From assembly GCA_023139045.1 (NCBI GenBank), contig JAGLOJ010000017.1:11245-75244 (forward strand): a DNA stretch of 64,000 bases, given 5' to 3'. Made by a program: the position numbers and the translations under genes. Shown here in pieces: positions 4,183 through 54,790 of this stretch (position 1 is its first letter; each line of letters opens with the position of its first letter). The notes below the pieces were generated by a model. That model searched no databases, was not told the origin of the DNA, and saw only the letters and a list, made by a program, of their open reading frames with translations. The DNA is from Candidatus Sabulitectum sp. (lineage in GTDB: Bacteria; Fermentibacterota; Fermentibacteria; Fermentibacterales; JCC-6).

Positions 4183-4219
4183 AAAAAACAGGAGCAATCT
4201 GCTTTTTGTTGCCCCTGTT
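4183..4219 (-). terminator. Rho-independent terminator downstream of folD
   Basis: Minus-strand hairpin AACAGGGGCAA-N11-TTGCTCCTGTT (11 bp with one G-U pair) followed by TTTTTT, about 20 nt after the folD stop. Confidence 0.6.
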
Positions 4220-4239
4220 CCCGGTAAATTAGTGGTATT

Positions 4240-13000: not shown

Positions 13001-13018
13001 ACTACCTTCCCATTTCGG

Positions 13019-14179: not shown

Positions 14180-14207
14180 GATTCCCCCTTCCAGCAGTCC
14201 AAAAAGG

Positions 14208-15503: not shown

Positions 15504-15516
15504 AAGAACTCCTAAA

Positions 15517-15840: not shown

Positions 15841-15848
15841 TGATCCTC

Positions 15849-38957: not shown

Positions 38958-39821
38958 TCAAAGGAAAAGTAATAACTCATCTTTTCTCAGGCTTCTTCCT
39001 GCATATCTTTTGATCTCTGACACCAGCTGGCTGGTTACAGGGCATTCGATGCGTGATCCTGTCTCACGCAACCCGGTCAGAAAATCAATTTCAGTGGGCA
39101 ATCCCTTCTCAATATCCTGAAGCATGCTGCACCTGTTGGATGAGTGCTCCAGCAGCCATTCAAGAATCCTCCGACCTTCAGCAAGTGCTCTGCGGGATGG
39201 CATGAGCACAGCAATCTCCCGGGATAGTTTGTCTATCAGTGGACGCAATCCCGCTTCGACAATTCTGTTGTTCTCAAGCCCTGTGAGAGCACCAATGGGA
39301 TTGATGATGCTGTTCGCATACCATTTAGCCCATCTTAACTCGCTTATGTCCCCAACCTCTTCCACAGACATCCGGGAGGAAGCGAAAATACCGGCTGCCG
39401 CACTGCCGGGTTCACAGTAAACAACTCCATCAGTAGTGAGCACTGTGATCGGATCTGTTTTTCTGAAACCCATTGACAGCACACTGTACTCCACCCTGCC
39501 GGCCAGATCTCCCCATTCTTCGTCAAGCCCCATTCCATTGGACAGGCAGATTACTTTCCCGTTACTGATTTCTTTTATGTCTGGAACAGCATCCCGTATG
39601 GAATATGCTTTCAGAGCAACTATCACAGATTCTCCGGCTGAAATTCTGTCTATAGCCGTATGAAGAATCTCTGCCGATAGCCGAAGATGACCTTCTGTAG
39701 AAAATACTCGTTTTTTCTCAGGTGTTCCCCGCGGACCCGCGAGAATTACCTCCCCGTCGGAACCGGAAAGGGCAACAGCAACTGCGATTCCCACAGCACC
39801 GTCGCCCACTACAACAAACAT
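38958..39821 (-). CDS. panE: 2-dehydropantoate 2-reductase (ketopantoate reductase)
   Basis: Rossmann N-terminus VVGDGAVGIAVA and KPR C-terminal motif SMLQDIEKGLPTEIDFLTG. Confidence 0.75.
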   Translation of the reverse strand: MFVVVGDGAVGIAVAVALSGSDGEVILAGPRGTPEKKRVFSTEGHLRLSAEILHTAIDRISAGESVIVALKAYSIRDAVPDIKEISNGKVICLSNGMGLDEEWGDLAGRVEYSVLSMGFRKTDPITVLTTDGVVYCEPGSAAAGIFASSRMSVEEVGDISELRWAKWYANSIINPIGALTGLENNRIVEAGLRPLIDKLSREIAVLMPSRRALAEGRRILEWLLEHSSNRCSMLQDIEKGLPTEIDFLTGLRETGSRIECPVTSQLVSEIKRYAGRSLRKDELLLFL

Positions 39822-39830
39822 GATCTCTGT

Positions 39831-40154
39831 TTAAACCTCGGAGTCAGCCTCTGCCGCAGGCTCCTCCTCGTGGTGTACTTTGTCTCGGACGTAATCAATG
39901 GTTTCCTCCACCTTGGCACGCCCTTCGGAATAGATTTTTTCGGCTTTTCCTCTACCGTCGTGGTAGATTTTCTCTGCCTCAATTTTGCCTTTTCCGTAAA
40001 CTTCCTCACCTTTGTGATAGGTTTCTTCGGCAGTATCCCGGATTCTCTTTCTGGTTTCCTCGCCCTTTGCAGGTGCATAAAGAAGTGCAATCACTCCGCC
40101 AGCAAGCAGCCCAGCTGTAAATGCCCAGAATTCTCCCTTGCCCTTCTCGCTCAT
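39831..40154 (-). CDS. YtxH-like general-stress membrane-associated protein
   Basis: Start at ATG 40154 (GGGAGG at 6 nt). FTAGLLAGGVIALLYAPAKGEETRKRIRDTAEE matches the YtxH pattern. The longer ORF would overlap the secA stop. Confidence 0.65.
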   Translation of the reverse strand: MSEKGKGEFWAFTAGLLAGGVIALLYAPAKGEETRKRIRDTAEETYHKGEEVYGKGKIEAEKIYHDGRGKAEKIYSEGRAKVEETIDYVRDKVHHEEEPAAEADSEV

Positions 40155-40179
40155 TTGATGCCTCCCATGGAATTGCCGC

Positions 40180-43100
40180 TTACCTACCGCAGCACTGTTT
40201 GTATTTCTTCCCGCTACCACAAGGGCAGGGATCGTTCCTTCCAACTTTTTCTTCATCCCGTTTCACCGTCTGCTGTTTACCCTCAGCATTCTTGCCGGCA
40301 CCGGATCGCGCATCGCCAGTTGGAGCCCGCAAACCCGGATGAACAGCCTTTCCGGCGGGACCCGCTTGTCTTTGTATTTTAGAAGCAGGCCACAAAGATA
40401 ATATCTGCCTAACTGCCTGTTTGTCAATACCGTCAAGCAGCTCTTCGAACATGCCGAAAGCTTCTTTCTTGTACTCAACGAGAGGATCTCTCTGCGCATA
40501 AGCTCGCAGTCCAATACCTGATTTCAGATGATCCAGTGCATAGAGATGATCCCTCCACTTTGCATCAATTGAGCTGAGGACAGACCATTTCTCCAGGTCC
40601 AGAACGAGCTGATCGCCAAGTTTTTCTCTCTTTTTTCCGTAGTAATCCATGACCAGCTCAACAAGTTTCAGGCGTAACTTTTCACCATCCTGAAATTTCT
40701 CTGTTATTCCATCCAATCTGAATACCGCACCTGAAATGTCCCGCAGGCTCACAACCACACCATCCATGTTCCATTCATGCGGTTGAGAATCATCAGGGAT
40801 AAACTCCATAAGACCATGCTCTATCACAGCTTCAATCATGTCGTGGATCTCTTCATCAAGCCCGTCTCCGGTAAGAGCTTGAAGCCGCCTCTCGTAAATA
40901 ACCTCACGCTGACGATTTACAACATCATCGTATTCAAGAAGGTGCTTTCTTATCCCGAAATGGTACTGCTCAACTCGTTTTTGAGCCTGCTCAATTGACT
41001 TTGTAAGAAGGGCATGCTCAATTGGCTCGCCCTCTTTCTCCTGACTTTTCTTGAGGAAATCTATAATCTTCTCGCTGGCGAAAAGCCTGAAGAGATCATC
41101 TTCAAGGGAGAGGTAAAACCTGCTTCCACCGCGGTCACCCTGCCTGCCGCTTCTTCCCCTGAGCTGACGGTCAATCCGCCGGGATTCATGCCTCTCCGTA
41201 CCGATAACAAACAAACCGCCTTCGGTTTCATCACCCTCCGGCGTACTGATTACTTTAACATCTTCCGAGATCTTGATATCTGTTCCTCGTCCTGCCATGT
41301 TGGTTGCTATGGTAACAGAACCCTTCTGACCGGCTCTGGTAATGATTTCAGCTTCCTGCTGATGGTGCTTTGCATTCAAAACGCTGTGAATGATCTTTCT
41401 TCTCTTCAGAAGCTTTGACAGCAGTTCAGAAACTTCCACGGAAACTGTACCGACAAGCACTGGCTGCCCCATTGCATGCCTTCTGGCGATCTCGTCAATT
41501 ATCGCACCGTATTTCTCGCGCTTTGAACCATAAACCCTGTCATTATGATCAATTCTCGCTATAGGTTTGTTGGTAGGTACAACAGCAACATCAATGTTGT
41601 AAATACTGCCGAATTCCTCAGCTTCAGTTTCCGCTGTACCTGTCATTCCGGCGAGCTTGCTGTACATTCTGAAATAGTTCTGAATTGTTATTGTGGCCAG
41701 TGTCTGGGTTTCATTTCGTATCTCCACATTTTCCTTGCACTCAAGAGCCTCGTGAAGCCCGTCACTGAACCGTCTTCCCGGCATTGGCCTGCCTGTGAAC
41801 TGATCAACAATTACAACTCGACCCTCATCCAGTACATACTCCACATCTTTTTCGTAGAGCTGATAGGCTTTCAGAAGCTGATCTATGTTGTGAAGAGCTT
41901 CTGCCTTTGCGGAATGACTCTCGTATATCTGCTTTTTCTTTTCGAGCCTTTCCTGCTCCGAAATGTCCTGAACCTCAAGCTCAGCCATATCATCGCCGAT
42001 ATCTGTAATTAGGAAAAAATCGGGATCCTCCGGGGAAAGAAGTTTTCTTCCCAGATCGGAAACCGAAACAGATTTTTCCCGTTCATCAATTGCAAAGTAA
42101 AGGCCTTCATCGAGTTTATGAATATTCTTATCACGAAGCCTTTCTCCTTCAACGCGCTTTACCGCGGCAACCCTGTCCGGATCACGCATGGCCTTCGCCA
42201 GCCGGCGGTGTTTCGGTGCTCCGCGACGTGCTTTCAGATAGAGAGTTGCTGCACCGTGAAGATCTTCACTGTCCCAGAGGTCGTTGGCATCTGCAGCAAT
42301 GGAGTTAACCAGTTCCGCCTGCTTCCTGACCAGCCTGGCCACAACAGAGCGATATTCGTTGTACCTGTTTCTGTTTCTGGCAACCGGACCACTGATAATC
42401 AGTGGTGTTCTTGCCTCATCAATAAGAACACTGTCTACCTCATCGACTATGGAATAGTGGTACTTGCGCTGAACCCGCTGTTCCAACCTCACTGCCATGT
42501 TATCCCTGAGGTAATCGAATCCGAACTCGCTGTTGGTGCCGTATGTAATGTCGCAGTTATACTGTTCCCTGCGCTGATCGGGAGTCATGCCACCCCGTAT
42601 ACAGCCTACCGAAAACCCCATGAACTCGTAGATCGGACCCATCCATCTGGCATCGCGAAGAGCGAGATAATCGTTCACAGTAACCAGATGGGCTCCGGCG
42701 CCAACTGGAATACCATCAATTGGTTCAAAGACCCACTTGTCGTAATCCTCACCGAATTCCTCAAGTGCTCTTCTCTTCCAATCCGGATTAATCTCGAGGC
42801 CATTCAGATACATTGGAAGAACAGCGACAAGAGTCTTACCCTCGCCAGTTGCCATTTCTGTGATCATACCCCGGTGCAGCACAATGCCACCTTTCAGTTG
42901 AACATCATAGGGCACCATATTCCATTCCGTCGAATGGTCGCTCACATCCCAGAATGCTCCGAGGTTTCTCCGGCAGACTTCTTTTACAACGGCAAAAGCC
43001 TGAGGAAGAAGATCATCAACGATCTCTCCCTCAAGAAGCCTTATCCTGAATTCTCTGGTTTTACCTTTAAGCTCCACATCAGAAAGAGCTGAAAGCTCTG

Positions 43101-43203
43101 CAAAATTGATATTGATCTGATCCACCAGCGGCTCAAGACCTTTCATCAGCTTGGCCTGGCTGTCGCCCATAATTTTTTTGAAAAGTTTTCCAATCATCCC
43201 CAT
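40180..43203 (-). CDS. secA: Preprotein translocase ATPase SecA
   Basis: DEAD-like motor (DEVDSVLIDEARTPLIISG) and C-terminal zinc finger CPCGSGKKYKQCCG. Start set at the TAATG overlap (MGMIGKLFKKIMG), not the 27-codon upstream extension. Confidence 0.95.
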   Translation of the reverse strand: MGMIGKLFKKIMGDSQAKLMKGLEPLVDQININFAELSALSDVELKGKTREFRIRLLEGEIVDDLLPQAFAVVKEVCRRNLGAFWDVSDHSTEWNMVPYDVQLKGGIVLHRGMITEMATGEGKTLVAVLPMYLNGLEINPDWKRRALEEFGEDYDKWVFEPIDGIPVGAGAHLVTVNDYLALRDARWMGPIYEFMGFSVGCIRGGMTPDQRREQYNCDITYGTNSEFGFDYLRDNMAVRLEQRVQRKYHYSIVDEVDSVLIDEARTPLIISGPVARNRNRYNEYRSVVARLVRKQAELVNSIAADANDLWDSEDLHGAATLYLKARRGAPKHRRLAKAMRDPDRVAAVKRVEGERLRDKNIHKLDEGLYFAIDEREKSVSVSDLGRKLLSPEDPDFFLITDIGDDMAELEVQDISEQERLEKKKQIYESHSAKAEALHNIDQLLKAYQLYEKDVEYVLDEGRVVIVDQFTGRPMPGRRFSDGLHEALECKENVEIRNETQTLATITIQNYFRMYSKLAGMTGTAETEAEEFGSIYNIDVAVVPTNKPIARIDHNDRVYGSKREKYGAIIDEIARRHAMGQPVLVGTVSVEVSELLSKLLKRRKIIHSVLNAKHHQQEAEIITRAGQKGSVTIATNMAGRGTDIKISEDVKVISTPEGDETEGGLFVIGTERHESRRIDRQLRGRSGRQGDRGGSRFYLSLEDDLFRLFASEKIIDFLKKSQEKEGEPIEHALLTKSIEQAQKRVEQYHFGIRKHLLEYDDVVNRQREVIYERRLQALTGDGLDEEIHDMIEAVIEHGLMEFIPDDSQPHEWNMDGVVVSLRDISGAVFRLDGITEKFQDGEKLRLKLVELVMDYYGKKREKLGDQLVLDLEKWSVLSSIDAKWRDHLYALDHLKSGIGLRAYAQRDPLVEYKKEAFGMFEELLDGIDKQAVRQILSLWPASKIQRQAGPAGKAVHPGLRAPTGDARSGAGKNAEGKQQTVKRDEEKVGRNDPCPCGSGKKYKQCCGR

Positions 43204-43514
43204 TACGGAAATTCCTCCATGCATATTTCGGCCGTCACAAAACCGCCCGCGGTCGCTCCGGCCATATCCGCTACGAGATCCCACATCTGAAATCCGGAAC
43301 CACGCAAGCCATCACAAATTTCTTTCAACAGACCCAGCCCCACAGCAAAGACCACTGATTCTGCAGGTTCAGAAGTCACGGCAGTGGCAATAGATGAAAA
43401 TGAAGCCGAGAAAGCAAAGTGATTCCATTTATCTGAAGCAACAAAAGAACCACACCCACATCCACATGTGAACATAACAAATACGAGAGAACCGATGCAT
43501 ACAGTGAATCTCAT
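43203..43514 (-). CDS. Small putative lipoprotein, unknown function
   Basis: 103 aa with a hydrophobic N-terminus containing Cys run FTCGCGCGS. Coupled to secA (TAATG) and to the upstream TPR gene (4-nt overlap). Confidence 0.45.
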   Translation of the reverse strand: MRFTVCIGSLVFVMFTCGCGCGSFVASDKWNHFAFSASFSSIATAVTSEPAESVVFAVGLGLLKEICDGLRGSGFQMWDLVADMAGATAGGFVTAEICMEEFP

Positions 43515-44311
43515 ATTGGTTCACCGTATCCTTCAGATGTACTTGTAAACTCGTTCATCAGGTCAAGCAGAGAATCAGATTTCATCGCCCACAGGCTGTC
43601 ATTGCTCCACAGCGCAGAGGATTCTCTGAGATGCGGAACAGCGTCCATCATAAGCCCCTCCCGTATGAGATTTTTTCCGTAGAAATACAGCTTCCAGCCC
43701 AGGTCAGCTGCAGATGATGGAATTCTTCGAAGTTCAAATGCCCTTCGCGATGCCTCAATAGCCCCCTGTGAATCACCCAGAGCATCAAGAACCGATGATG
43801 TCGTCTGCCAGAATGACAATCCTGCTGAACCTGTATTCTTAAGTATCTCGAACTGAGCTGCTGCACTTTCCAACTCGGTCGCATCAATCAACTTTTCAAT
43901 GAACAGACTCCTGTAGAATTCCTCATCCGGCATAAGATCAACAGATTTTTCGATGTAACGGAGACCTGCATCCCCATGCAGTATCGAAAGCCAGCATCCA
44001 GCGTCGGCTGCAATTGAATCAATCTCACTCTCAAAAGAATTCTCAAGCCAGGCGCGAGATGGTTTTTCCTGCAGATCAAGGTCAATTTCAGCCCTGGCCA
44101 GCCTGTACCGGCATGTTCCTCCCCCGCTGACAAGGTATGAATACTCAAGAATCTTCTCCGGCTGACCGGAGAGTGACTTCAGCAGTTCAGCCAGGCATCT
44201 TTCACTGGAAGGTTGAATACTGAGGGCCGTTTCAGCATAGAACTCAGCGGAATCCGGAAGATCAAGAAGATTGTAACACCATGCAGCACGGTAAAAGGGC
44301 CACCAGTTCAA
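43511..44311 (-). CDS. TPR-like repeat protein; 5' end unresolved
   Basis: 266 aa from TTG 44311. The frame stays open for 39 more codons upstream (TAFICLFLLLSFSGG..) up to an in-frame TAG, which is the stop of the preceding gene. Confidence 0.5.
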   Translation of the reverse strand: MNWWPFYRAAWCYNLLDLPDSAEFYAETALSIQPSSERCLAELLKSLSGQPEKILEYSYLVSGGGTCRYRLARAEIDLDLQEKPSRAWLENSFESEIDSIAADAGCWLSILHGDAGLRYIEKSVDLMPDEEFYRSLFIEKLIDATELESAAAQFEILKNTGSAGLSFWQTTSSVLDALGDSQGAIEASRRAFELRRIPSSAADLGWKLYFYGKNLIREGLMMDAVPHLRESSALWSNDSLWAMKSDSLLDLMNEFTSTSEGYGEPI

Positions 44312-44428
44312 AGGTTGAATGCCGCACTGAGTACGATAGCTGTTCAGTGCGTCAAGAATGTTCCCGGACTGAACAAGAGAGTCCCCCCCGGAAAACGAAA
44401 GCAGAAGAAACAGGCAGATGAAGGCCGT

Positions 44429-44824
44429 CTAAAACCCTCCGAAATTCAGATTACTCTCTGGAAGCACACCGCGATAAGTAACAGAAAACAGAGAATTCTC
44501 TGATGGTCTCCAGTTCAACTGGAACCCCCCGAGAATTCTTCCAGTTTCCTCACCACCGGAGAACATCATCAACCTGGAATAACCCATTTCCACAGTGGCA
44601 TCGACATCGGGGTGCAGCGAAAAACTCATACTTCCCAGGTAAGTTCCCTCTCCCACAGAACCGTACTGCCCCGAAGAAAAAGAGAAACTTGCCATGCTGC
44701 TGAATTCCGGGTTGAATCCCGAGGCATAGTCGGGATAACCCACCAGATTAAAACTGGAAGGCTGAAGACCATAGGCAAATGAAACGGCAAAGACAATCAG
44801 CAAAATCAGAATACTGTTTTTCAT
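44429..44824 (-). CDS. Small secreted / outer-membrane-like protein, Cys-free, C-terminal Phe
   Basis: 131 aa. Signal peptide MKNSILILLIVFAVSFAYG, Gly/Ser/aromatic-rich alternating pattern, ends ..NLNFGGF. AGGGAG sits 8 nt before the ATG. Confidence 0.5.
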   Translation of the reverse strand: MKNSILILLIVFAVSFAYGLQPSSFNLVGYPDYASGFNPEFSSMASFSFSSGQYGSVGEGTYLGSMSFSLHPDVDATVEMGYSRLMMFSGGEETGRILGGFQLNWRPSENSLFSVTYRGVLPESNLNFGGF

Positions 44825-44851
44825 AACATAATCTCCCTGTTAATGATGCTA

Positions 44852-44880
44852 ATATTACCTATACAAACCAGGGCAGTCAA
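44852..44880 (-). promoter_or_regulatory. Sigma70-like promoter for the 44824 gene
   Basis: Minus strand reads TTGACT-N17-TAATAT about 27 nt upstream of the ATG. It separates this gene transcriptionally from the radical-SAM operon upstream. Confidence 0.4.
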
Positions 44881-44903
44881 TGTTCCATTTTCAAGAATAA
44901 CTT

Positions 44904-45308
44904 TTACCAGAACAGTCTTCTTACAATTCCGCAATGAAGCCTCACCACAAGAGACGGAGAAAGTGCCAATGGTATCAACACCGATCCGATGCTGCGATAA
45001 CTGCCCCTTCTCAGAATAGCTGTAACTCTCTTTATTCTATCTATTGAAGCAAAATGCCACTCTGCATCATCAGGACCAGACCTGTCACCGCCGGATTCAA
45101 CCACGAATTCATTGTTCGACTTTCGAACACTCAGTACCCTGTGAACCACAAACAGTTCCTCATCCGCTTTCAGGAACACCGCAATCATACCGGCCTTGAG
45201 TTCTGTTACCGGAATATTCTCTGCTTTAAGAATATCGCCGGGAATAAGGTTCGGCCACATTGAAAGCCCCTTTACCCAGCCCAGGTCTTTGTGAGTCCGG
45301 TTTCTCAT
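44904..45308 (-). CDS. SipW/ER-type (S26B-like) signal-peptidase homologue lacking an N-terminal membrane anchor
   Basis: 134 aa. Ser motif KGLSMWPNLIPGDIL, His motif FVVHRVLSV, acidic GGDRSGPDD. No hydrophobic segment precedes the catalytic Ser. 4-nt overlap with the HprK-like gene. Confidence 0.65.
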   Translation of the reverse strand: MRNRTHKDLGWVKGLSMWPNLIPGDILKAENIPVTELKAGMIAVFLKADEELFVVHRVLSVRKSNNEFVVESGGDRSGPDDAEWHFASIDRIKRVTAILRRGSYRSIGSVLIPLALSPSLVVRLHCGIVRRLFW

Positions 45309-45817
45309 GGAAGAAAAGCTTTCGGATCTTCCTGAAGCCCGTATCTGACAATGTAAACTGGAAACAACCGGAGAAGCTCTTTAAGAAATGCTTTTGCCTG
45401 CTTCTGTTCTTCCGGCAGAATGCTCCCGAGAGCCATGATTGATGAAAGCTTCACCGCACGGTAGAAAGCGTACTCCGCAGATATCCTGTATCTGAAACCC
45501 GGTGAGCCCTTTTCCACGAAGTAAATGGCTTCAAGAACAGCACCGTCTATTTTCTCTGTTCCCATGTTCTGTTTCATGGAACCGCAGGGCAGGCATCTTA
45601 CTACTCCGTCTGTTCCACGGGCAATAACAACACTGTCATCAGCAATTGCACCGTATCTCTCTCTGGTCAGCTTGCCCATAATGGTTGATTTGCCACCTCC
45701 CGACATGGCCAGAAAAACCGAAGCTGAATCATTCTCAGCCACAGAAGACGCATGAAGAACAACTCCCTCAGGAAGCACTGCCCGGAGCTGGGCTCGAAGA
45801 ATAAATCGATCCATCAT
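45305..45817 (-). CDS. Minimal HPr-kinase-related P-loop kinase
   Basis: 170 aa. P-loop FLAMSGGGKSTI and downstream GAIADDSVVIA match the HprK C-terminal catalytic domain (GxSGxGKS ... ADD). ATGA overlap with the upstream rSAM gene. Confidence 0.7.
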   Translation of the reverse strand: MMDRFILRAQLRAVLPEGVVLHASSVAENDSASVFLAMSGGGKSTIMGKLTRERYGAIADDSVVIARGTDGVVRCLPCGSMKQNMGTEKIDGAVLEAIYFVEKGSPGFRYRISAEYAFYRAVKLSSIMALGSILPEEQKQAKAFLKELLRLFPVYIVRYGLQEDPKAFLP

Positions 45818-46857
45818 CTGTCAATCAGCCTTGTTTCCGGGAAAAGGCCTGCGTCGTACGCACGCTGGCAGAGTATATCCGGGCTGGTAACTGACCCGCC
45901 TGTTTCCATGTTGTTCACCACACACTGTCCTACACATGAGTCTCTGTGCAGGCAGCGATGACAGACTCCTTCAATACTGTCAGGAAGAGAAGACCTGATC
46001 ATCTTGTACACAGGTGAATTCTCCCATGCTTCCCGTACTGAGGTCTCAGGGAACTTGCCCCAGGCCATTTCTTTTCTGGAGAAAGCAACACCGCACAGAG
46101 AGAAAGTACCGTCAGGAAGAACCCCCATAAGATTTCTTACAGGGCAGTACCCGTGGTTCTTCAGTCTATTCACTGGAAGCAGAGCCGCAGGAACAGACGG
46201 AATCACCCCCGGTGGAGTTTCTTTGTCGATCCAGGAGAAAAATTCAAGAATTTCTTCCAGAGAATTATTATCATAAAAGTTATCGCTTTTCCCTCTGCCG
46301 GATGGTGTTATGAAATTGATTTTCAGGGTGTCTGCACCTATTTTTCGAACAAGCTTGATCATGCTTTCAACAGGCTCCCGCTCAACGCTGGAGACAGACA
46401 TAATTATCTGATTGTTTATTCCGTTCTCAACAAGTTTTCCTGCAAAACATACAGTCTCTTTCCAGGCACCGCTCTGCCCCCTGAATTCGTCATGCAGCCG
46501 GGCTTCTGCGTTGTCCAGGCTCACGGAAACATGAAAAGGCTTCTTTTCTGCAAATGCTTCCCACAGCCCTTCCGGCTGCAGAGTACCATTGGTCTCTATA
46601 ACAACTTTTGGAAAGAGGTCTGCAGAGTACCTGTATAAAGGAACAATCTCGTGGAAAAGCAGCGGCTCGCCACCTGTGAATTTCAGGTAACCGCACCCCT
46701 CTGCTTTTGACTGGGAGAGCAACGCTTTCCACTCAGAGAGAGAGAGAAGCTCCCCGGTAAACGAGCCCTCGTTCACCCAGCAGTGCCTGCAGTGCAGGTT
46801 GCAGCCAGCGGCGGGATTGATGTAAAGAGCACCTAGAGCGGGCAGTTGTGATGTCAT
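45814..46857 (-). CDS. Radical SAM / SPASM-domain peptide-maturase-like protein (second of pair)
   Basis: CNLHCRHC cluster motif. C-terminal Cys-rich region (GYCPV..LPDGTFSLCG..GVCHRCLHRDSCVGQC) is typical of SPASM/twitch auxiliary clusters. Start at ATG 46857 (ATGA overlap). Confidence 0.85.
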   Translation of the reverse strand: MTSQLPALGALYINPAAGCNLHCRHCWVNEGSFTGELLSLSEWKALLSQSKAEGCGYLKFTGGEPLLFHEIVPLYRYSADLFPKVVIETNGTLQPEGLWEAFAEKKPFHVSVSLDNAEARLHDEFRGQSGAWKETVCFAGKLVENGINNQIIMSVSSVEREPVESMIKLVRKIGADTLKINFITPSGRGKSDNFYDNNSLEEILEFFSWIDKETPPGVIPSVPAALLPVNRLKNHGYCPVRNLMGVLPDGTFSLCGVAFSRKEMAWGKFPETSVREAWENSPVYKMIRSSLPDSIEGVCHRCLHRDSCVGQCVVNNMETGGSVTSPDILCQRAYDAGLFPETRLIDR

Positions 46858-47903
46858 TTTTCTCCAAGAGCCATTTTCAGGCATGAATGCTTATCAAGAC
46901 CGATATCCTGTTTCATGTTCAGCGGCTCTACCGGGCAACCACCGGTACAGAAATTCAGGTATCTGCAATCAGTGCATTCCGGATAGTCAGATCTCTTCTG
47001 ATTCATGAATTCAGTAAATCTATTCATTTCCCCGCCGGTAAGAATTTCCTCAAGAGACTGCCGGGTAATATCACCCAGTGTAAGATCTGGAAGATGGTCA
47101 CATGGAGTGACCCTGCCATCGGGGAAAACGGCAATTTTCCCCACACCCGCGCCGCATGAATATGCTCTGTCTTTTCTCTTGCGCAGCTTTCCTTCTTTGC
47201 ATTTTAGCATTATGGCCCGCATATCCAGAAGAGTTCCCTGAATTCTGCCGGGGTACTTTACAGCAAGAATACTCAGCGCTTCCGCTGCCTTATTCACCTT
47301 TGCCTGTTCAGGAACCATATCGCGATTCAGTTCCGGACCGGCAAGAAGGAAGTTGTTGAATTTAATCCAGTCAGCGCCAAGGGAAAGAGCAAATTCTGCA
47401 GTTTCAACCACCCTGTCAACGTTAAGACTTGTTGTTGTACAATAGAATCCGAAAGGTATGTCCCCCTGGCGAAGCTTTTCCACGCCCAGAACAAGTTCTT
47501 CAAAAACACCTGCACCTCTCTGGCTGTCAACAGTTTCTTTGTCGGGGCCATCAAGACTTACCATGAATTCATTGAACCTGGAAGAGTACTTCTTTATTGT
47601 TTCAATGATCTCTGTTGTTACAAGGGTTCCGTTGGTGTTAATAGAGAATCTGAAGGGTCTTCTGTACACCTCTCCAAGGAACTGAATGAAATCCGGCCTT
47701 GCAAGAGGTTCTCCTCCTGTGATGGTGAGCTTTAGAAGCTTACTCCTCTGGAGTTCATCCAGAATCTTTCTCCATGCGGAAAGAGGAAGGTCAGTGTTCA
47801 GACCACCGTAACTGGTTACAGAGCAGTGTCTGCATCTGAGGTTGCACTTACCGGTAATAAGCAGATTTGCCTCACGGGGGGAAACCCAGTAGGGAGCCAT
47901 CAA
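46854..47903 (-). CDS. Radical SAM / SPASM-domain peptide-maturase-like protein (first of pair)
   Basis: CNLRCRHC cluster motif, GGEPL SAM-binding motif, and SPASM signature SCGAGVGKIAVFPDGRVTPC...CTDCRYLNFCTGGC. 4-nt overlap with the upstream PAS gene. Confidence 0.85.
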   Translation of the reverse strand: MMAPYWVSPREANLLITGKCNLRCRHCSVTSYGGLNTDLPLSAWRKILDELQRSKLLKLTITGGEPLARPDFIQFLGEVYRRPFRFSINTNGTLVTTEIIETIKKYSSRFNEFMVSLDGPDKETVDSQRGAGVFEELVLGVEKLRQGDIPFGFYCTTTSLNVDRVVETAEFALSLGADWIKFNNFLLAGPELNRDMVPEQAKVNKAAEALSILAVKYPGRIQGTLLDMRAIMLKCKEGKLRKRKDRAYSCGAGVGKIAVFPDGRVTPCDHLPDLTLGDITRQSLEEILTGGEMNRFTEFMNQKRSDYPECTDCRYLNFCTGGCPVEPLNMKQDIGLDKHSCLKMALGEK

Positions 47904-49147
47904 ACCAGAGCACCCTTTTCTTTGAGCTCCTTTATAAAATCATCAAGATCCCGCTCTAGATTCTGCTCTTCCGGGTAGTGCTTCTGTAATTCAGAAAGAA
48001 TATTCTCTCTGTCTTTTCCGTTGTCTATCATGTCACAGATACCGAAGGCAACCCCTTCGGTTACCTGCAGATCACCGGTATCTATGTTGAAAAGAATGCC
48101 TCCTGCAGGCTCTCTTCTAAAAACCACACCCTTTGCGTACTCGAGTTTTTTCATGGTTCCTCCTGTTGGTATTTGCTCCCCGGGCAGTATTTCGCCGTAG
48201 TGCTTCTGGCCACACTCCGGGCAGAGGCCGTGGCTGAACTCCGCCATGGAATGCTGGCTGATGAAGATTTCCAGCTGCTCCCAGTAGCCGGAGTCGTTAC
48301 GTATCCTTTTACAGTGGGCGCATATGGGTATTATACCCTTCAGAGTCTGTATCCTGGATAGAGCAGTTCGGAGTTCCACGATCAGATCCTTCCTTGCAAA
48401 CTCCGCGCTTTTGCGCCTGGTTATGTCCAGATGTGTTCCCAGCGCGCGTACAGGCTTGCCGAATTCATCCCTCTCCACAATCCTGCCCCAGTTATGCACC
48501 CATTTCCATGAGCCGTCCTTGTTCCTCATCCTGTGCTCAACCTCGAAGACTTCAGTTTCGCCCATTTCATGCTTTTTAGCGGCTTCCAGCACATCTGACA
48601 GATCATCAGGATGAATGAGCTCAAGCCAGAACTCCTTCCCGGCGGGAATTTCCCCCGAGGCGTAACCGAGCATCTCGGCCCATTCGTCACTCCTGGTTAC
48701 TTCTCCAGTTCTGAAATTTTCTTCCCACCAGGCGAGATTAGCGCTCTCCATGGTTGCAGCAAGACGCTCCCGGCTATGAAGCAGATCGGCGTACATCTTC
48801 TCGGACACCAGAGTGCTTACATTGTATTTTACAGCTCCCATCAACTCTCCTGAGAAGTTGAACATCGGGTAGCAAGTGATTGTATTAATGCGTCCTTTTG
48901 CGTCCTTTTGCTCCCTGTTGCAGGGCTCGCCACTGGCTAGAACCTGAGAAACCGGGCAGCCACCGCAGGTGGGTTCTGACTTCAGAGAACTGAATGCACA
49001 TTCACGGCAGCCTGAGCCGCAGAGGGGAATACACTCGGGACTCTGGGAACGTTTTTCAGTAGTAGCTAGAATATTGCCATTATTATCAAAGCAGATAACA
49101 GTCCCTGAAAAGACCTGTTCCGTGCAGATAGCTGCGTCATCTGGCAT
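47900..49147 (-). CDS. Cys-rich PAS-like / PAS / Cys4 domain sensor protein fused to a C-terminal PqqD-like RiPP-recognition element
   Basis: 415 aa. Residues 1-100 hold 10 Cys (CIPLCGSGCREC..CGGCP). Residues ~125-245 are a canonical PAS (HPDDL..EHRMRNKDGSWKWV..DITRRK). Residues ~268-320 read IPICAHCKRIRNDSGYWEQLE..FSHGLCPEC. Residues 332-415 (MKKLEYAKGVVFRREPAGGILFNIDTGDLQVTEGVAFGICDMID..) are PqqD-like. Confidence 0.8.
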   Translation of the reverse strand: MPDDAAICTEQVFSGTVICFDNNGNILATTEKRSQSPECIPLCGSGCRECAFSSLKSEPTCGGCPVSQVLASGEPCNREQKDAKGRINTITCYPMFNFSGELMGAVKYNVSTLVSEKMYADLLHSRERLAATMESANLAWWEENFRTGEVTRSDEWAEMLGYASGEIPAGKEFWLELIHPDDLSDVLEAAKKHEMGETEVFEVEHRMRNKDGSWKWVHNWGRIVERDEFGKPVRALGTHLDITRRKSAEFARKDLIVELRTALSRIQTLKGIIPICAHCKRIRNDSGYWEQLEIFISQHSMAEFSHGLCPECGQKHYGEILPGEQIPTGGTMKKLEYAKGVVFRREPAGGILFNIDTGDLQVTEGVAFGICDMIDNGKDRENILSELQKHYPEEQNLERDLDDFIKELKEKGALV

Positions 49148-49254
49148 AGACTGAATCCGTTTTCATATTTTAAGTGACCGGGTGTGCTGCATCCGGCTGG
49201 AAAATAACGACCACATCAATACATCTAAAAGTGTCAGGATGTTCGTCAAGAGTC

Positions 49255-49387
49255 AATTCGATCAGTATAGGTTCTGATCAGGTGTCAGAACTGCCCTCGG
49301 TAATATAGCTTGACCATTTCCGAAAAGGGTATCGTAACACCACCCTCGCAGGTTGATCAGCCAAGAATTCGATCAATTCCGGATCAG
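49255..49387. repeat. Cluster of GATCAG/GATCAA motifs in the divergent intergenic region
   Basis: GATCAG at 49260, 49276, 49355 and 49382, plus GATCAA at 49371. AATTCGATCA occurs twice (49255, 49366). GTGTCAG occurs just upstream at 49231 and within the span at 49283. Confidence 0.6.
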
Positions 49388-49849
49388 TGTGGTAAATTCT
49401 ATCTCAGATTGTACCCAAAGCTTGCAGTTATCGCCTTCATTTATCAGCAAATATCGAAAACGAATATACTCCACCACCGGGAAGAAGCTTTTTATTTTAG
49501 CTTACGAACTGGTATAAGCTTTATAGATTGGCTCTGGATAAGGTATGTGAACCCGATACGGATTACATTCCATGGCAGGATGGTATTCCTGAGATAAAAA
49601 TCGCTTAGGAACAAAGTAATCAGCTTCATGGGTGAGATTTACCCCAATGCGAAGTTTATCATAAGAATCAGAGAGATCTTCATTGACTTCGGAGGAGTTT
49701 GGCAGTATGGTTAGCTTTAGGAAGGGAAATGGTGACATCTGCGAATGGATGAGCTGCTTGGGGAGCAGGTAGTATTACGGAAAATCCAATTTCATATTGC
49801 TCAACAGCTTTCCGCAGAGTAACAGGATACAGAGATAAGGAAGGATAGA

Positions 49850-51322
49850 ATGAATAGCAGAATATTAGCAGTACTGCTGGTTTTAGCAGTTTGCCCGACG
49901 CTTCAGGCAGCGGACATCTGGGTGATGGGTTATTACGTGGGATACCATGTGGGTCTGCAGTCACCGAACGAAGTAGACTACTCAACCATGACACACATAA
50001 TGGTAGGTGCAGCAATTCCCCAGAATGACGGTACTTTTGACACGAATTTCTATATGGGCTCATCTGGACCTGCCTGGGCGCAGGAAACTGTGAATCTTGC
50101 CCATACTGCTGGTATCAAGGCAGTACTGATGGTAGGAGGAGCCGGTAGCCACGCAGCCTTCCAGGCAACACAGAATCCCACAGTAAGAGCTGCCTTTGTT
50201 TCGAATCTTTCTCAGATAGTCAACAGCTACGGATTCGACGGCATAGACCTCGACTGGGAACCCATTCCCGCCTCTGACCGGGACGACATCCTTGCCCTCT
50301 CGCAAGACCTGCGCACTGCCATGCCAGACAAGGTGATGACCATCCCCCTGGGATGGAGCAACAGCAACTTTCCATTGACCGATTCCTTCTGGGGACAACT
50401 CTCTCAGTACTTCGACAGAGTAAACATGATGTCCTACCATATGACATGGATTGGCGGTGGATGGGAGAGCTGGCATTCATCCGCTCTTTATGGCGAGACG
50501 CCGACCACTCCATCCTCAATCGACCACACTGTGAGTGCATATCTGGCATCAGGCATACCCGGGAATAAGATAGGAATAGGAATAGGTTTTTTTGGTGAGC
50601 CATATGAGAATGGCAGCTGGTCGGGCGGTATCTTCGTTCACAATACCAGCCCTCCATATATTACCGAACCGGGGCAGAGCACAACAGAAGCTGCTATACG
50701 CGTCAGCGATAACTGGTTCTCTTACAGCAATATCATCCGCTACGTCTACGACAGTAACGCAAGGGAGTGGGACGACACAGCAAAGGTTCCCTACCTGAGT
50801 TTTGACACACCTTTCGAGAGTCCATGGCCAACGTGGCCAACGCCACCAATCACAACCACCTACGTTACTTATGAGGACGTGGAGTCTATAGCTGCAAAGG
50901 GGCTGTACGTACACAATGAGGAACTGGGGGGCTGCATCATCTGGACCATATCCCAGGGTTATCTGGATTGGCTCTCCTCAGGAGAGAAGGATCCACTCAT
51001 GAAGGCCGTGAAGATCGCCTTCCTGGAAACGACAGCGATCGAACAGTCATCGCCGGCACCGATTGTTTCATCATTCTCTGCGTATCCGAATCCGGTTTCA
51101 TCCCTATCGACTATTCAGTACAATCTTCTTGAACAGTCTCATGTTACGATTGAAGTATTCGACATATCCGGGCGTCCCATGCGAACAGTACAGGATGGTT
51201 TTGAACAGAAAGGAGAACACTCATTCCTGTTCCAGACTGCTGAACTGCCAGCGGGTGTATACATGCTGAGATTGGCCTCTGACTCTCAGACCATAACGCA
51301 GCGAATAGTCATAGCAAGGTAG
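49850..51322 (+). CDS. Secreted GH18 glycoside hydrolase (chitinase-like) with T9SS type-A C-terminal sorting domain
   Basis: Signal peptide MNSRILAVLLVLAVCPTLQA. GH18 catalytic motif FDGIDLDWEP. The last ~80 aa (YPNPVSSLSTIQYNL..VTIEVFDISGRPMRTV...LPAGVYMLRL) match the Por secretion tail pattern. Confidence 0.85.
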   Translation: MNSRILAVLLVLAVCPTLQAADIWVMGYYVGYHVGLQSPNEVDYSTMTHIMVGAAIPQNDGTFDTNFYMGSSGPAWAQETVNLAHTAGIKAVLMVGGAGSHAAFQATQNPTVRAAFVSNLSQIVNSYGFDGIDLDWEPIPASDRDDILALSQDLRTAMPDKVMTIPLGWSNSNFPLTDSFWGQLSQYFDRVNMMSYHMTWIGGGWESWHSSALYGETPTTPSSIDHTVSAYLASGIPGNKIGIGIGFFGEPYENGSWSGGIFVHNTSPPYITEPGQSTTEAAIRVSDNWFSYSNIIRYVYDSNAREWDDTAKVPYLSFDTPFESPWPTWPTPPITTTYVTYEDVESIAAKGLYVHNEELGGCIIWTISQGYLDWLSSGEKDPLMKAVKIAFLETTAIEQSSPAPIVSSFSAYPNPVSSLSTIQYNLLEQSHVTIEVFDISGRPMRTVQDGFEQKGEHSFLFQTAELPAGVYMLRLASDSQTITQRIVIAR

Positions 51323-51351
51323 AATAGCTACTGTCAGAACCAGTTCTCGGG

Positions 51352-51951
51352 CTAGAAAGAGGCTTTTATTGCACCCCAGCTGTTTCGCTGAAGAGCAACA
51401 GGTGTTCTCAGCTCGAAAAACGAATCCCAGCTGTGGCCCTGTTCTGCAAAGGAATGGTACTGTCCACCCTCAAAGTACCACATAGGTGAGCCGAACACCA
51501 CCGGATCCTGGTAGAGTACACAAGAATTGAAAACTACACCGGTAACAAGCCAGTACAAATTACCTGCATCCACTGCAACAGACTGCCCCAGATCAAGTGT
51601 CATTTCATAGATAGGCTGAGCGCTGAGAGAGTCGCCTGTAGCAGAGTACGAGACAGTGAAATTCCCGGAAATGATCGAAGTGGCATTATTGGGATTTATG
51701 TCACCTGTGTCCTGTGTGATCTTCAGGAATACCTCAGTCGGTGGTGATGCATTAAAATACTGATAGATGGTAACATGCCTGAAATACCCGGTAAAATCAG
51801 GAGTGAAATCATCAGCCACACTGGTGTAGCATGTGCCACCGTCTACAGAACCAAAGTCATAACTCTGTGTGAAAATTGCATCGCTGGCATGCCCGGAAAC
51901 AAAAGGAGTCAAAACCAGCGCAACAACAACCGATCCAATAGTACCCTTCAT
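51352..51951 (-). CDS. Small secreted protein, paralogue family B, C-terminal SWGAIKASF
   Basis: Start at MKGTIGSVVVALVLTPFVSGHA (GGGGGAGG upstream). Homologous to 52101..52697 throughout (ADDF, DTGDINPNNATS, YQDPVVFG, WDSFFELRTPVAL). Confidence 0.65.
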   Translation of the reverse strand: MKGTIGSVVVALVLTPFVSGHASDAIFTQSYDFGSVDGGTCYTSVADDFTPDFTGYFRHVTIYQYFNASPPTEVFLKITQDTGDINPNNATSIISGNFTVSYSATGDSLSAQPIYEMTLDLGQSVAVDAGNLYWLVTGVVFNSCVLYQDPVVFGSPMWYFEGGQYHSFAEQGHSWDSFFELRTPVALQRNSWGAIKASF

Positions 51952-52100
51952 ATACCTCCCCCTCGAAATGCGACCCCACAAATCGTTTATCCTCTCTGAT
52001 TATAGTAAACACATTGACCTGCGAACAGTTCCACGAATTCGCTTACAGGGTGAAATCTGAAAGCAAACTTATGTTGCACGAGTCAAGACGGATAAATCAA

Positions 52101-52697
52101 CTAGAACGAAGCCTTTATGGACCCCCAGCTGCTTCGCTCAAGGGCTACTGGTGTTCTTATTTCGAAAAATGAATCCCAGTTATAACCACTTTCTGACAGT
52201 TTATGATATTGACCTGCTGTAAAATTCCACATTGATGTGCCAAAAACAACTGGATCCTGGTAGACCAAGTATGAACCGGAGACAGTGCCTACCTCAAGCC
52301 AGTAGAGCTCGCCAACAATTACTGAGGTAGTTGAAGGAAATGAAAAGGTAACTTCATTGATTGAGTAACCAAACAACGAATCACCTGTAGCAACGATGGA
52401 GGGAACAAGATTTCCGGAAATAAGTGATGTAGCAGTATTCGGATCAATATCACCATTGTCTTCGGTAATCTTAATAAAGATATCCACTGGAGGAGTGCCT
52501 GTAAAGATCATCCACAACACAACAAATTGGCAATCACCAGAGAAATTTGGAACAAAATCATCTGCCAGGCTAGGAGACTGAGCACCCCCGTCTACATTAC
52601 TGAAATTATAAGTTTGTGCAAATATGGCATTGCCTGTCTGGGCAAAAGCAGACAGAGCAAAAACAGATACAACCAACAACAATATGGAAAATTTCAT
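52101..52697 (-). CDS. Small secreted protein, paralogue family B, C-terminal SWGSIKASF
   Basis: Start at MKFSILLLVVSVFALSAFA. Tandem paralogue of 51352..51951. Confidence 0.65.
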   Translation of the reverse strand: MKFSILLLVVSVFALSAFAQTGNAIFAQTYNFSNVDGGAQSPSLADDFVPNFSGDCQFVVLWMIFTGTPPVDIFIKITEDNGDIDPNTATSLISGNLVPSIVATGDSLFGYSINEVTFSFPSTTSVIVGELYWLEVGTVSGSYLVYQDPVVFGTSMWNFTAGQYHKLSESGYNWDSFFEIRTPVALERSSWGSIKASF

Positions 52698-52835
52698 TTT
52701 CAACTCCTTGGAAGACAATACTCAACGCAGCCCTATAATAACAAACAAATTGCTTCCTGCACAGGTTCCACCACAAGCCATTGTCCGCAAGTTCTCAGGA
52801 TAGTATTATTGTACCATGAAGAAAGGAAATGTATA

Positions 52836-53069
52836 ATGTTTTTTCCAGAGAAATACAAGAAGCCTGTTCTGCAGAGCGTCGTTGAAGCATCACAAAATGG
52901 CTGGAACGCAACATGCAGTACTGGAACTACACCTGGATCGGGTGGACTTGATTGTCCTGCCGGTGATGGTGCAGGAGCTGCAAAAGGCGGGTTTGACGGA
53001 CGACTTTACACCAACCCCGACAATTCTTCCAGGCTGCTGAATCCTGAAGATGTGAACAGCGGGCGTTAA
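52836..53069 (+). CDS. Possible small Gly-rich protein (77 aa), unknown function
   Basis: ATG 52836 is preceded by GAAAGGAAA at ~8 nt. Product: MFFPEKYKKPVLQSVVEASQNGWNATCSTGTTPGSGGLDCPAGDGAGAAKGG... No homology recognised. The upstream part of track ORF 52527..53069 is antisense to a real gene. Confidence 0.25.
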   Translation: MFFPEKYKKPVLQSVVEASQNGWNATCSTGTTPGSGGLDCPAGDGAGAAKGGFDGRLYTNPDNSSRLLNPEDVNSGR

Positions 53070-53992
53070 GACTTATCTGTTTTCTTATTCAGAACTGCCA
53101 GGGCTCCAAGCCCGAGTAATACGCTGAACCAGAGTGTGGCGAACCTCATAAGCAGGGTCGTCACTGTTGCTGTTGCCGCTGGAAGGTAATCACACAAAAT
53201 TCCGTCGATTGTCAGTTCTGTTAACCCGAGACCACCCGGAATCATTGATATTGCGCCTGCAACACTTCCTGCAGCATGGGAAAGAAGAGCCACGCCTGCC
53301 GGCAGCTCATACCCCATTGAGGCTGCCACCACGCACAACACAAGTGCCTCTATGCCCCACGACACCATGCCGATCGGTACGGATACAGCAAGGCTCTTTG
53401 CGTCCAGAAGGGTCATCGATGCATCTCTGAAACCATCAAACAAGTGTTTTCTTTTCTCAAGAAATGGTATCTTGTGGGCGATCTTTGAGAAAAGATCCCA
53501 GGCCCACTTGTTCATCAGAACAAACATTGCCAATGCAACAAATACCGCCCCTGCTCCTGCTGCAGGCAGAGCTATTCTACTTTTTACAAGAAGTGCCCCT
53601 GTCAAAGCCAGGAGTACCATGCTGATCAGGTCAGTGAGCCTCTCAGCCACCACAATCGGGCTTGTTTTCTCGATTGGAATACCCCTGCGACTTTTAAGTA
53701 GACTGCACTTGAGCAGTTCCCCCATTTTTCCAGGGGAAACTGTCATTGAAAAACCTGCAATGAATACAAGAAAGCTCTCCTTCAAAGGAACCTTCTCATT
53801 TATTCTGTGGAGGAAATACTGCCACTTGAGAAACCTGATTCCGTAGTTGAGAAGGGGAAGCAGGAGGAATAGAGGTATCCAGTTCAGATTAATGGAATCT
53901 GCTGCTGATACTACCTTCCGGATATCTGAATGGAGTACGAGAACTGTATAAAGAACAATGGCGATAACAATGCCCCAGATAGCCTTCTTCAT
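53066..53992 (-). CDS. Flippase-like / LPG-synthase-TM (UPF0104) family membrane protein
   Basis: 308 aa, polytopic. N-terminal pattern ..LNWIPLFLLLPLLNYGIRFLKWQYFL... and SPGKMGELLK are typical of this family. Confidence 0.7.
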   Translation of the reverse strand: MKKAIWGIVIAIVLYTVLVLHSDIRKVVSAADSINLNWIPLFLLLPLLNYGIRFLKWQYFLHRINEKVPLKESFLVFIAGFSMTVSPGKMGELLKCSLLKSRRGIPIEKTSPIVVAERLTDLISMVLLALTGALLVKSRIALPAAGAGAVFVALAMFVLMNKWAWDLFSKIAHKIPFLEKRKHLFDGFRDASMTLLDAKSLAVSVPIGMVSWGIEALVLCVVAASMGYELPAGVALLSHAAGSVAGAISMIPGGLGLTELTIDGILCDYLPAATATVTTLLMRFATLWFSVLLGLGALAVLNKKTDKS

Positions 53993-53995
53993 AGC

Positions 53996-54790
53996 TCAGC
54001 TCTTTGCCTTCTCGCCTGTGATGGCCAGAAGTTCCTGTTGCAGCTTTTCTGTGCCCGGTTGCCTGTCCAGTGTCTTCAGTGCTTTTGCAGCCAGTCTCTT
54101 TGCCTCACTGCTGTCCTTGAGTTTTACAGAACACCTGGCAGCAAGACCGAAAGCCTGGGCTTTGCCCATTCTGGTAATTGGAGTGTCGGGAAGCAATTCT
54201 GCTGAAGTCATAGCACTGGCTCTGGCTCTGGAATACTGATTCCTCTTCATGTGAAGCATTGCAAGATTAAGGTAAACTCCACTTTTTCCGGCACCCTCAC
54301 GCTGCTCAAGAGCTTCCTCAAGAAGAGCTTCTGCCTCACCCAGCCTCTGATCCATATTGATAAAAAGACCGGCAAGATTGACCTTCATTGTGCCTTCGAG
54401 CTTGGGATCCTGCTCCATAGCCTTTCGGTAAAACTTCTCGGCACTTTCATTCTGCCCTTTCTGCTGGGCAATGTAAGCCATCTGAGCCATGGCAGTTCCA
54501 CTGTTATCTCCGGCATCCATGGCTTCCACAACTATCTTCTCGGCCTTCTCAGTTTCTCCGCTTCGAATAAAGTAGAAAACCAGAGCATTTGTCAAAGGGC
54601 AGGCTACACTCTTCTTCTTCCTGTTTACCTCAAGATAGTCTATCATGTCCTGAACATTTCCCTCAGCGGCCATCTTGGCTGCTTTCTGGAGCTGTCTCTG
54701 CTTCCAGACAGGGGATCTAATAAGTTTGTATCCAAGAAAAATTGCAATTGCCAGACAAACACCGGCTACAACGAATAGTATATTTTCCAA
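53996..54790 (-). CDS. Membrane-anchored TPR-repeat protein
   Basis: TTG 54790 is preceded by AAGGAG at 6 nt, giving (M)ENILFVVAGVCLAIAIFLGY (TM) followed by TPR repeats. The longer track ORF would overlap the PBP1A 3' end by >300 nt. Confidence 0.6.
   Translation of the reverse strand: MENILFVVAGVCLAIAIFLGYKLIRSPVWKQRQLQKAAKMAAEGNVQDMIDYLEVNRKKKSVACPLTNALVFYFIRSGETEKAEKIVVEAMDAGDNSGTAMAQMAYIAQQKGQNESAEKFYRKAMEQDPKLEGTMKVNLAGLFINMDQRLGEAEALLEEALEQREGAGKSGVYLNLAMLHMKRNQYSRARASAMTSAELLPDTPITRMGKAQAFGLAARCSVKLKDSSEAKRLAAKALKTLDRQPGTEKLQQELLAITGEKAKS

Follow-up and report, generated by a model that had tools for sequence, protein, structure and literature searches.

Among described gene systems, the SynChlorMet (Scm) cassette (NCBIfam TIGR04248 to TIGR04252) is present in many anaerobic bacterial and archaeal phyla and combines a PqqD-type RiPP recognition element (RRE; RiPP, ribosomally synthesized and post-translationally modified peptide), two paired radical S-adenosylmethionine (SAM) enzymes with SPASM domains (ScmE and ScmF), a P-loop protein, frequently a cytoplasmic S26 peptidase, and a small precursor with a K-Y-x-K-P-x-L leader and C-x-x-G-x-x-(A/P) units. 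The sactipeptide and ranthipeptide systems (AlbA, PapB and SCIFF maturases) also use radical SAM/SPASM enzymes with two auxiliary clusters, an RRE and Cys-repeat precursors, the HprK-like kinases of lasso-peptide clusters (HprK_rel_A and HprK_rel_B, TIGR04352 and TIGR04355) combine Walker-A and ADD motifs with a PqqD-type RRE and a peptide substrate, and GeoRSP (TIGR04302/TIGR04303) has a PqqD-type protein and a radical SAM/SPASM enzyme. We analysed a stretch of 64,000 nucleotides (hereafter the window) from Candidatus Sabulitectum sp., a member of the Fermentibacterota (assembly GCA_023139045.1, contig JAGLOJ010000017.1, positions 11,245 to 75,244), where a preliminary description, made from the sequence alone, had drawn attention to five consecutive minus-strand genes (g1 to g5) as a RiPP-like, SynChlorMet-related system with no visible precursor. 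The reading that we favour, to which we give a probability of nearly 80%, is that these genes belong to a six-gene cassette for the maturation of a ribosomal peptide, i.e. a compact, diverged Fermentibacteria variant of Scm that was rearranged in this genome. All five open reading frames (ORFs) were confirmed at the coordinates first given for them:

47900-49147, minus strand: g1, PAS plus PqqD ORF, 415 aa
46854-47903, minus strand: g2, ScmE-like radical SAM/SPASM enzyme, 348-349 aa (Pfam and NCBIfam)
45814-46857, minus strand: g3, ScmF-like radical SAM/SPASM enzyme, 347 aa (Pfam and NCBIfam)
45305-45817, minus strand: g4, mini-ScmC with an HprK/PEPCK-type P-loop domain, 170 aa
44904-45308, minus strand: g5, anchor-less mini S26B-type (SEC11/SipW-like) Ser/His peptidase, 134 aa

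Four-nucleotide overlaps had been claimed at all four junctions. ATGA overlaps are read from the DNA at g2/g3 (46854/46857), g3/g4 (45814/45817) and g4/g5 (45305/45308); the g1/g2 junction is TTGATG, so that the overlap there is of 4 nt only if g2 starts with the TTG at 47903, and of 1 nt, with TGA, if it starts with the ATG at 47900, as called in the source assembly. The CxxxCxxC motifs and SPASM clusters attributed to the two middle genes can be read directly from the translations, as CNLRCRHC in g2, CNLHCRHC in g3 and a complete 7-Cys SPASM motif in both, and the Pfam matches are all above gathering scores (for g2 and g3, respectively, 83.7 and 68.6 bits with Radical_SAM PF04055, and 46.2 and 27.8 bits with SPASM PF13186). 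Homologues of g3 are mostly 347 aa long, and those that are named place the organism among the Fermentibacteria (Aegiribacteria/Sabulitectum).

The relationship to Scm shows in these two enzymes. The top NCBIfam match of g2 is ScmE (TIGR04250, 174.6 bits over the full model span, with 88.7 bits for the ScmF model) and that of g3 is ScmF (TIGR04251, 227.3 bits, also over the full span, with 46.4 bits for the ScmE model); ScmC is, together with HprK_rel_A and HprK_rel_B, one of the weak matches of g4. The reciprocal preference of g2 for ScmE and of g3 for ScmF supports the proposed SynChlorMet relationship. Both proteins score below every NCBIfam cut-off for the AhbD, NirJ, anSME, PqqE, PapB, AlbA and GeoRSP models. 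With the PapB, AlbA and StsB models there are partial matches of 70-100 bits, none of which attains its cut-off; moreover, sactipeptide and ranthipeptide systems have one maturase with a fused RRE, whereas here there are two maturases, a free RRE, a P-loop protein and an S26 peptidase, and the likeness is one of genes, any cross-link chemistry being assigned to the present cassette by analogy only. Membership of GeoRSP, which had been suggested alongside Scm, is not borne out: GeoRSP_rSAM (TIGR04303) gives 70.8 and 90.3 bits against a cut-off of 400 and geo_PqqD (TIGR04302) 14.3 against 100, the Scm models score higher on the window proteins, and the cassette is not a member.

The gene content is likewise that of Scm, with two radical SAM/SPASM enzymes, a PqqD protein, an HprK-like protein and a small precursor, which in relatives form one operon; in the window the precursor gene lies 3.7 kb from the remaining cassette genes. 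Conservation of the five-gene linkage in other genomes had been proposed as a check on the whole idea. The linked set, comprising a free-standing PqqD of 83-106 aa, ScmE-like and ScmF-like enzymes, a ScmC-like protein of ~170 aa and an S26-like protein of ~116-134 aa, is kept in more than 12 Fermentibacteria loci (L001-L008, L012-L018 and L067 in our numbering, those from L012 on being taken from one-genome-per-species contigs), and the order PqqD-E-F-C-S26 persists down to 34-38% ScmF identity. Linkage being conserved across homologous loci, the five-gene unit is real. Fermentibacteria/Aegiribacteria metagenome-assembled genomes (MAGs) also contain canonical-type Scm cassettes (L031, L054, L077 and L082), with full-length ScmC, an S26 peptidase of ~200 aa and multi-Cys peptides of 85-97 aa; thus canonical and compact variants coexist within the phylum. 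Judged by these comparisons of sequence and gene order, the cassette of the window is best described as a divergent, compact SynChlorMet variant confined to Fermentibacteria.

The two small genes at the end of the operon fit this description. The HprK-type P-loop reported for g4 is present (SGGGKST...ADD), and a g4 family profile compared with PDB sequences matches the HPr kinase structure 1jb1 in the P-loop region (E 7e-5). The protein aligns to the C-terminal P-loop half of canonical ScmC, which has 270-320 aa, and its orthologues carry the precomputed Pfam assignment PF27840 (ScmC). In comparison with the lasso-associated kinases its scores are low (23.5 bits with TIGR04352 and 20.4 with TIGR04355, for a cut-off of 200), the cyclase and protease of lasso clusters are missing, and its action as a kinase is a prediction. 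As for g5, its SipW-type Ser/His motifs and its lack of an anchor were both confirmed: Ser15, His55-Arg56 and Gly73-Asp74 are invariant and form Ser-Met, His-Arg and Gly-Asp boxes of the SEC11/SipW type, the family profile matches SEC11A/C among PDB sequences (E 1e-15), and the score with TIGR02228, the archaeal-type signal peptidase I model, is 38.4 bits (cut-off 51.85). What is left is the catalytic core only, with neither an N-terminal hydrophobic anchor nor the C-terminal domain of canonical Scm-linked peptidases. Compared with canonical Scm, then, ScmC is cut down to a catalytic half of ~170 aa and the peptidase to ~130 aa.

How usual such partners are was judged from 72 canonical-type loci of many phyla, retrieved with a ScmF alignment; the 80 loci retrieved span Desulfobacterota, Omnitrophota, Planctomycetia, Aminicenantes, Methanospirillum and Methanotrichaceae, among others. 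At least 29 of the 72 have an S26-like gene and at least 45 a Cys-repeat peptide ORF, about half of the latter within 120 nt of ScmF; both counts are lower bounds, many contigs being truncated. The order in locus L047 is ScmD-ScmE-ScmF-peptide-ScmC-S26 peptidase, followed by a 372-aa gene of unknown function, and the Scm-linked S26 peptidases of L047 and L039 score 55-67 bits with TIGR02228, i.e. above its cut-off. The peptidase is thus not an extension of the cassette, as had been thought, and the S26-type peptidase and the P-loop protein are, from their sequences, to be regarded as ordinary Scm partners. In five of the canonical loci (L024, L037, L048, L064 and L083) the PqqD match lies in a protein of ~200-220 aa in which the sequence on the N-terminal side of the match looks, by eye, like a second RRE-like region.

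The preliminary description had also held that no precursor was known for SynChlorMet. In fact one of the defining models, TIGR04252, is named "SynChlorMet cassette protein ScmA" (SCM_precur_ScmA), and the canonical loci carry small ORFs, usually next after ScmF or PqqD, in which a K-Y-E-K-P-x-L leader is combined with 3-8 repeats of C-x-x-G-x-x-(A/P). Some of these peptides match TIGR04252 at 21-24 bits, and overall they reach 11-24 bits only (cut-off 35). For the window it is correct that no precursor is visible within 44904-49147, and wrong that there is none nearby, since a candidate lies 3.7 kb away:

52836-53069, plus strand: ScmA-like precursor gene, 77 aa (homology and synteny)

Its product, MFFPEKYKKPVLQSVVEASQNGWNATCSTGTTPGSGGLDCPAGDGAGAAKGGFDGRLYTNPDNSSRLLNPEDVNSGR, starts with MFFPEKYKKPVL, and the leader peptide reads FPEKYKKPVLQSVVEA. 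It contains an invariant GW-x-A-x-C, two C-x-x-G-x-x-(P/A) units, at C27 and C40, and a conserved C-terminal tail (...RLLNPEDVNSG(L/R)), and the stop of its gene lies in a 4-nt overlap with the convergent LPG-synthase gene. Across 17 close homologues F3, P4, Y7, P10, L12, W23, C27, G30 and C40 are invariant. When 1.84 billion representative proteins were searched exhaustively with the family profile, only 33 matched, nearly all of 65-88 aa and with the same layout; the gene has no Pfam or NCBIfam match.

Synteny and homology both point to this gene. In L003/4, L005/15, L008, L012, L014, L016, L018 and L067 a gene of 61-91 aa stands directly 3' of the S26-like gene, on the same strand, and L013, where the small gene at that place lacks a canonical start codon, brings the number of such loci to nine. 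In hhalign the compact-type peptides are matched to the canonical ones with 96% probability (E 4e-9), the aligned part being the leader and the first two Cys units. A profile hidden Markov model (HMM) built from canonical peptides only ranks the small gene first among the 1,822 stop-to-stop segments of the window (E 8e-4; the next has 0.15) and matches all 20 compact-type peptides, one of which is also matched by TIGR04252 (E 6.6e-4). Taken together, the alignment, the rank obtained with the canonical-only model and the family as defined by TIGR04252 lead us to conclude that the 77-aa protein is the ScmA-like precursor. Three other places were tried and rejected. In the 702-bp region 49148-49849 and at 44825-44903, ORFs of at least 20 aa are neither conserved nor match ScmA-type profiles. 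A domain of the sensor had been put forward as a possible substrate, but the Cys-rich N-terminus of the PAS part of g1 is shared with free-standing PAS homologues that have no link to the cassette.

The present distance between the precursor gene and the enzyme genes has an ordinary explanation:

44895-48171: inverted block, from PqqD to S26 (tblastx synteny with L008)

Positions 6687-9975 of L008 correspond to 48171-44895 of the window, reversed, and on either side the two sequences are collinear (L008 811-6698, from SecA through an outer-membrane protein, and 9994-17044, from the precursor through LPG synthase, TPR and PBP). Taking the layout of L008 as ancestral (outer-membrane protein / PqqD-E-F-C-S26 / precursor / LPG synthase), the five enzyme genes were inverted in this lineage, the precursor being left beside the LPG-synthase gene; the inverted layout is also found in L094 and L006. 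At the borders of the inversion a search for inverted repeats gave short, weak pairs only, and none at the breakpoints.

Several observations weigh against this interpretation. The cut-offs of the curated models are 400 bits for ScmE and ScmF, 125 for ScmC, 100 for ScmD and 35 for ScmA, and none of the window proteins attains one: scores are far below these equivalog thresholds, the PqqD part having 14.0 bits with ScmD (TIGR04248) and g4 17.4 bits with ScmC (TIGR04249), over model positions 120-184 only, and the 77-aa peptide has no match to TIGR04252 at E≤10. By comparison, in the control locus L047 ScmD (129.1 bits), ScmE (625.6), ScmF (610.2) and ScmC (287) all exceed them. There is no small gene within 8 kb of the cassette in L001/L002 and L007, and after rearrangement the small gene keeps with the LPG-synthase gene and not with the enzymes, as in L092, where no cassette is found within 10 kb. 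Homology and ancestral adjacency, rather than strict co-movement, thus tie the peptide to the cassette. In L006, which has 85% ScmF identity, the ScmC-like gene is cut to ~96 codons (9041-9413) and the S26-like gene is absent, the precursor, PqqD, ScmE-like and ScmF-like genes being intact; this loss may reflect decay of the cassette or an artefact of metagenome assembly. A scan for promoters in the window gave counts no higher than the shuffled background (the same is true for terminators). Finally, the searchable literature holds no characterised Scm family member, product or enzyme chemistry, and nothing relevant joining HPr kinase with radical SAM, PqqD or SPASM.

If the cassette nevertheless works as its relatives suggest, the following sequence of events may be proposed, by analogy at each step. 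The PqqD RRE would bind the leader at F-P-x-K-Y-x-K-P-x-L and hand the core to ScmE and ScmF, which, with two auxiliary clusters each, would carry out a radical modification at the Cys residues of the C-x-x-G-x-x-(A/P) units. Thioether-type cross-links would be the most likely product, as with sactipeptide and ranthipeptide synthases. The P-loop protein might then, with ATP, phosphorylate or otherwise activate a Ser/Thr of the peptide, as in the case of the lasso-cluster HprK homologues, and the anchor-less S26 peptidase would take off the leader in the cytoplasm. One may go further and suppose that the compact variant makes a structurally new product, with a type of cross-link not yet described, for instance via the invariant Trp. 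Such a cross-link is possible because the window peptide differs from canonical ScmA in having GW-x-A-x-C, exactly two C-x-x-G units (instead of 3-8) and a conserved C-terminal tail of ~25 aa, for which canonical peptides have no counterpart; we consider it unlikely all the same. Were it true, the first defined Scm enzyme-substrate pairing would be directly testable with six small genes.

Another reading grants that the maturation system is real and denies that the 77-aa protein is its substrate, which would be encoded elsewhere or be larger, for instance one of the secreted paralogues of ~200 aa. The loci in which small gene and cassette are separated (L001/2, L007 and L092) and the missing TIGR04252 match speak for it, as does the position of the ~200-aa genes, which in L006, L007 and L094 immediately precede PqqD and in L012 and the window are found near it. 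However, these genes are missing near the cassettes of L003, L005 and L008, and their products have signal peptides, at odds with enzymes that are all cytoplasmic. Against this reading stand, moreover, the 96% hhalign probability with canonical Scm peptides, the top rank of the small gene among window segments with an independent HMM, and the nine loci, ranging from 34 to 76% ScmF identity, in which it comes next downstream of the cassette and on its strand. We therefore hold this possibility to be quite improbable, and retain the small gene as the predicted precursor.

The second striking feature of the locus, the joining of a sensor to an RRE, had been presented as part of its design. That the first gene ends in a PqqD-like domain is certain (PF05402, 31.4 bits for a cut-off of 23.4, residues 351-413 of 415), and the remainder contains a PAS_3 domain (80.7 bits, Pfam). 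The parts involved are:

47900-48148, minus strand: PqqD-like RRE, the ScmD counterpart, 82 aa (Pfam PqqD; own Shine-Dalgarno sequence and ATG)
48149-49147, minus strand: PAS-sensor part of the 415-aa ORF (PAS_3; free-standing homologues)
48180-51349: lineage-specific insertion, 3,170 bp (blastn with L094)

PqqD orthologues are free-standing in all relatives and have 83-106 aa, and the PAS homologues are likewise free-standing proteins, of 230-331 aa; among 5.8 billion proteins, PAS and PqqD are joined in one protein in this genome only. The nearest comparison is L094, collinear with the window at 81% nucleotide identity, which has a free-standing PqqD of 84 aa at the same site. By blastn, L094 46-8462 corresponds to 39766-48179 and 8517-11953 to 51350-54787, so that in the window the insertion, in which the PAS gene and a GH18 gene with a T9SS (type IX secretion system) tail are separated by 702 bp of non-coding DNA, replaces 54 bp of L094. 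The window is homologous to the sister PAS gene of L009 precisely as far as the stop codon of the latter (window 48176), and homology to the 5' untranslated region (5'UTR) of L094 PqqD starts at 48179. It follows that the PAS stop codon was lost at the junction, with a 4-nt microhomology. The insertion is later than the inversion.

It might be argued that the fusion has brought a new function, the RRE being gated by the sensor and maturation thereby tied to a signal perceived by the PAS and Cys-rich domains. The ORF is continuous, the same 415-aa product is found in a second, independent assembly (L011), and since two assemblies agree the allele is real; canonical Scm loci include PqqD proteins that are tandem or extended, and RRE domains tolerate fusion in many RiPP enzymes. 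Yet the fusion is unique, a close relative has the free protein, the junction coincides with the lost stop, the 7-residue linker, QIPTGGT, is nothing but the translated PqqD 5'UTR including its Shine-Dalgarno sequence, and the start site of the free-standing PqqD is intact, with its own AGGAGG 5 nt before the ATG at 48148. A functional role for the fusion is therefore very unlikely in our view, and the comparison of sequences points to a recent accident, an insertion scar, rather than to a conserved architecture. Free PqqD probably continues to be made from the ribosome-binding site of its own, the PAS-PqqD protein, produced when PqqD is also read through from the upstream PAS ORF, being a by-product; as a further possibility, the fusion may make maturation signal-dependent in this strain. 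That the radical SAM/SPASM pair has a non-RiPP task (sulfatase maturation, or heme or cofactor biosynthesis) and merely incidental neighbours can be dismissed as extremely improbable, since the secondary HMM matches that would favour it are far from their cut-offs (AhbD 106-128 bits against 500, NirJ2 101-112 against 500, anSME-type 67.4 against 349), no characterised non-peptide family, the type of result that the preliminary description had singled out as contrary, comes near its cut-off, no sulfatase or heme gene is found nearby in the window, and the enzymes are translationally coupled to PqqD, the P-loop protein and the peptidase in an arrangement conserved across phyla.

Both features that set this genome apart from other Scm loci, i.e. 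the precursor unlinked by an inversion and the PqqD protein fused to a PAS protein by an insertion scar, thus have ordinary explanations, and they illustrate a general trap: a "precursor-less" RiPP cluster can come from a local inversion, and an apparent domain fusion from a fresh insertion scar. What emerges for the Scm family is the regular presence of two partners, a cytoplasmic peptidase of the S26 type and a Cys-repeat precursor. The remaining interest lies in the chemistry of the family, and the minimal six-gene version, with ~4.5 kb of coding sequence and a short two-Cys precursor, is a practical and convenient way into the functions of ScmE, ScmF and the HprK-like protein.

The PAS part of g1, residues 1-325 of the 415-aa ORF, belongs to a family of Fermentibacteria proteins of ~330 aa with a Cys-rich N-terminus (C-x3-C-x2-C ... 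C-x2-C) that may bind metal. Their C-terminal module, (I/L)PIC-x-x-CK(K/R)IR-x-DSGYW...FSHGLCP(E/D)C (in the window PICxHCKRIRxD...SHGLCPEC), matches no Pfam model in the window protein; in other phyla it is also found at the end of many response-regulator, GAF, HAMP and PAS proteins. The GH18 chitinase-like gene (49850-51322, plus strand), with its T9SS Por_Secre_tail, is convergent with a 209-aa gene. In the 702-bp stretch 49148-49849, between the PAS and GH18 genes, we found no conserved ORF and no Rfam match, and within the window as a whole no Rfam family was matched.

On the other side of the cassette, 44429-44824 (minus strand) encodes a protein of 131 aa that has a signal peptide, ends in Phe and is probably a small outer-membrane beta-barrel; it has no family match. 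The gene is always found at the boundary between cassette and SecA, whichever way the cassette points; it was rejected as a cassette member because of its outer-membrane look and because it stays with the SecA block in either orientation. The secreted paralogues mentioned above are two proteins of ~205 aa (51352-51981 and 52101-52718, both on the minus strand) that have a signal peptide, match no model of Pfam or NCBIfam and share a conserved C-terminus (...RTPVAL(Q/E)R(N/S)SWG(A/S)IKASF); in L008 a homologue lies ~6 kb from the cassette, past the SecA block. Lastly, in the Fermentibacteria MAG locus L001/L002 a second RiPP-like cluster (286-4743) adjoins the compact Scm cassette. Its peptide has 58 aa and a leader of the double-glycine type (…TIRGG|NSAS…); the other products are a B12-binding radical SAM enzyme, a protein of 497 aa, an RRE-like one of 94 aa and a free-standing C39 peptidase, and an ABC transporter and an NTP_transf_5 gene are found downstream of the Scm genes.

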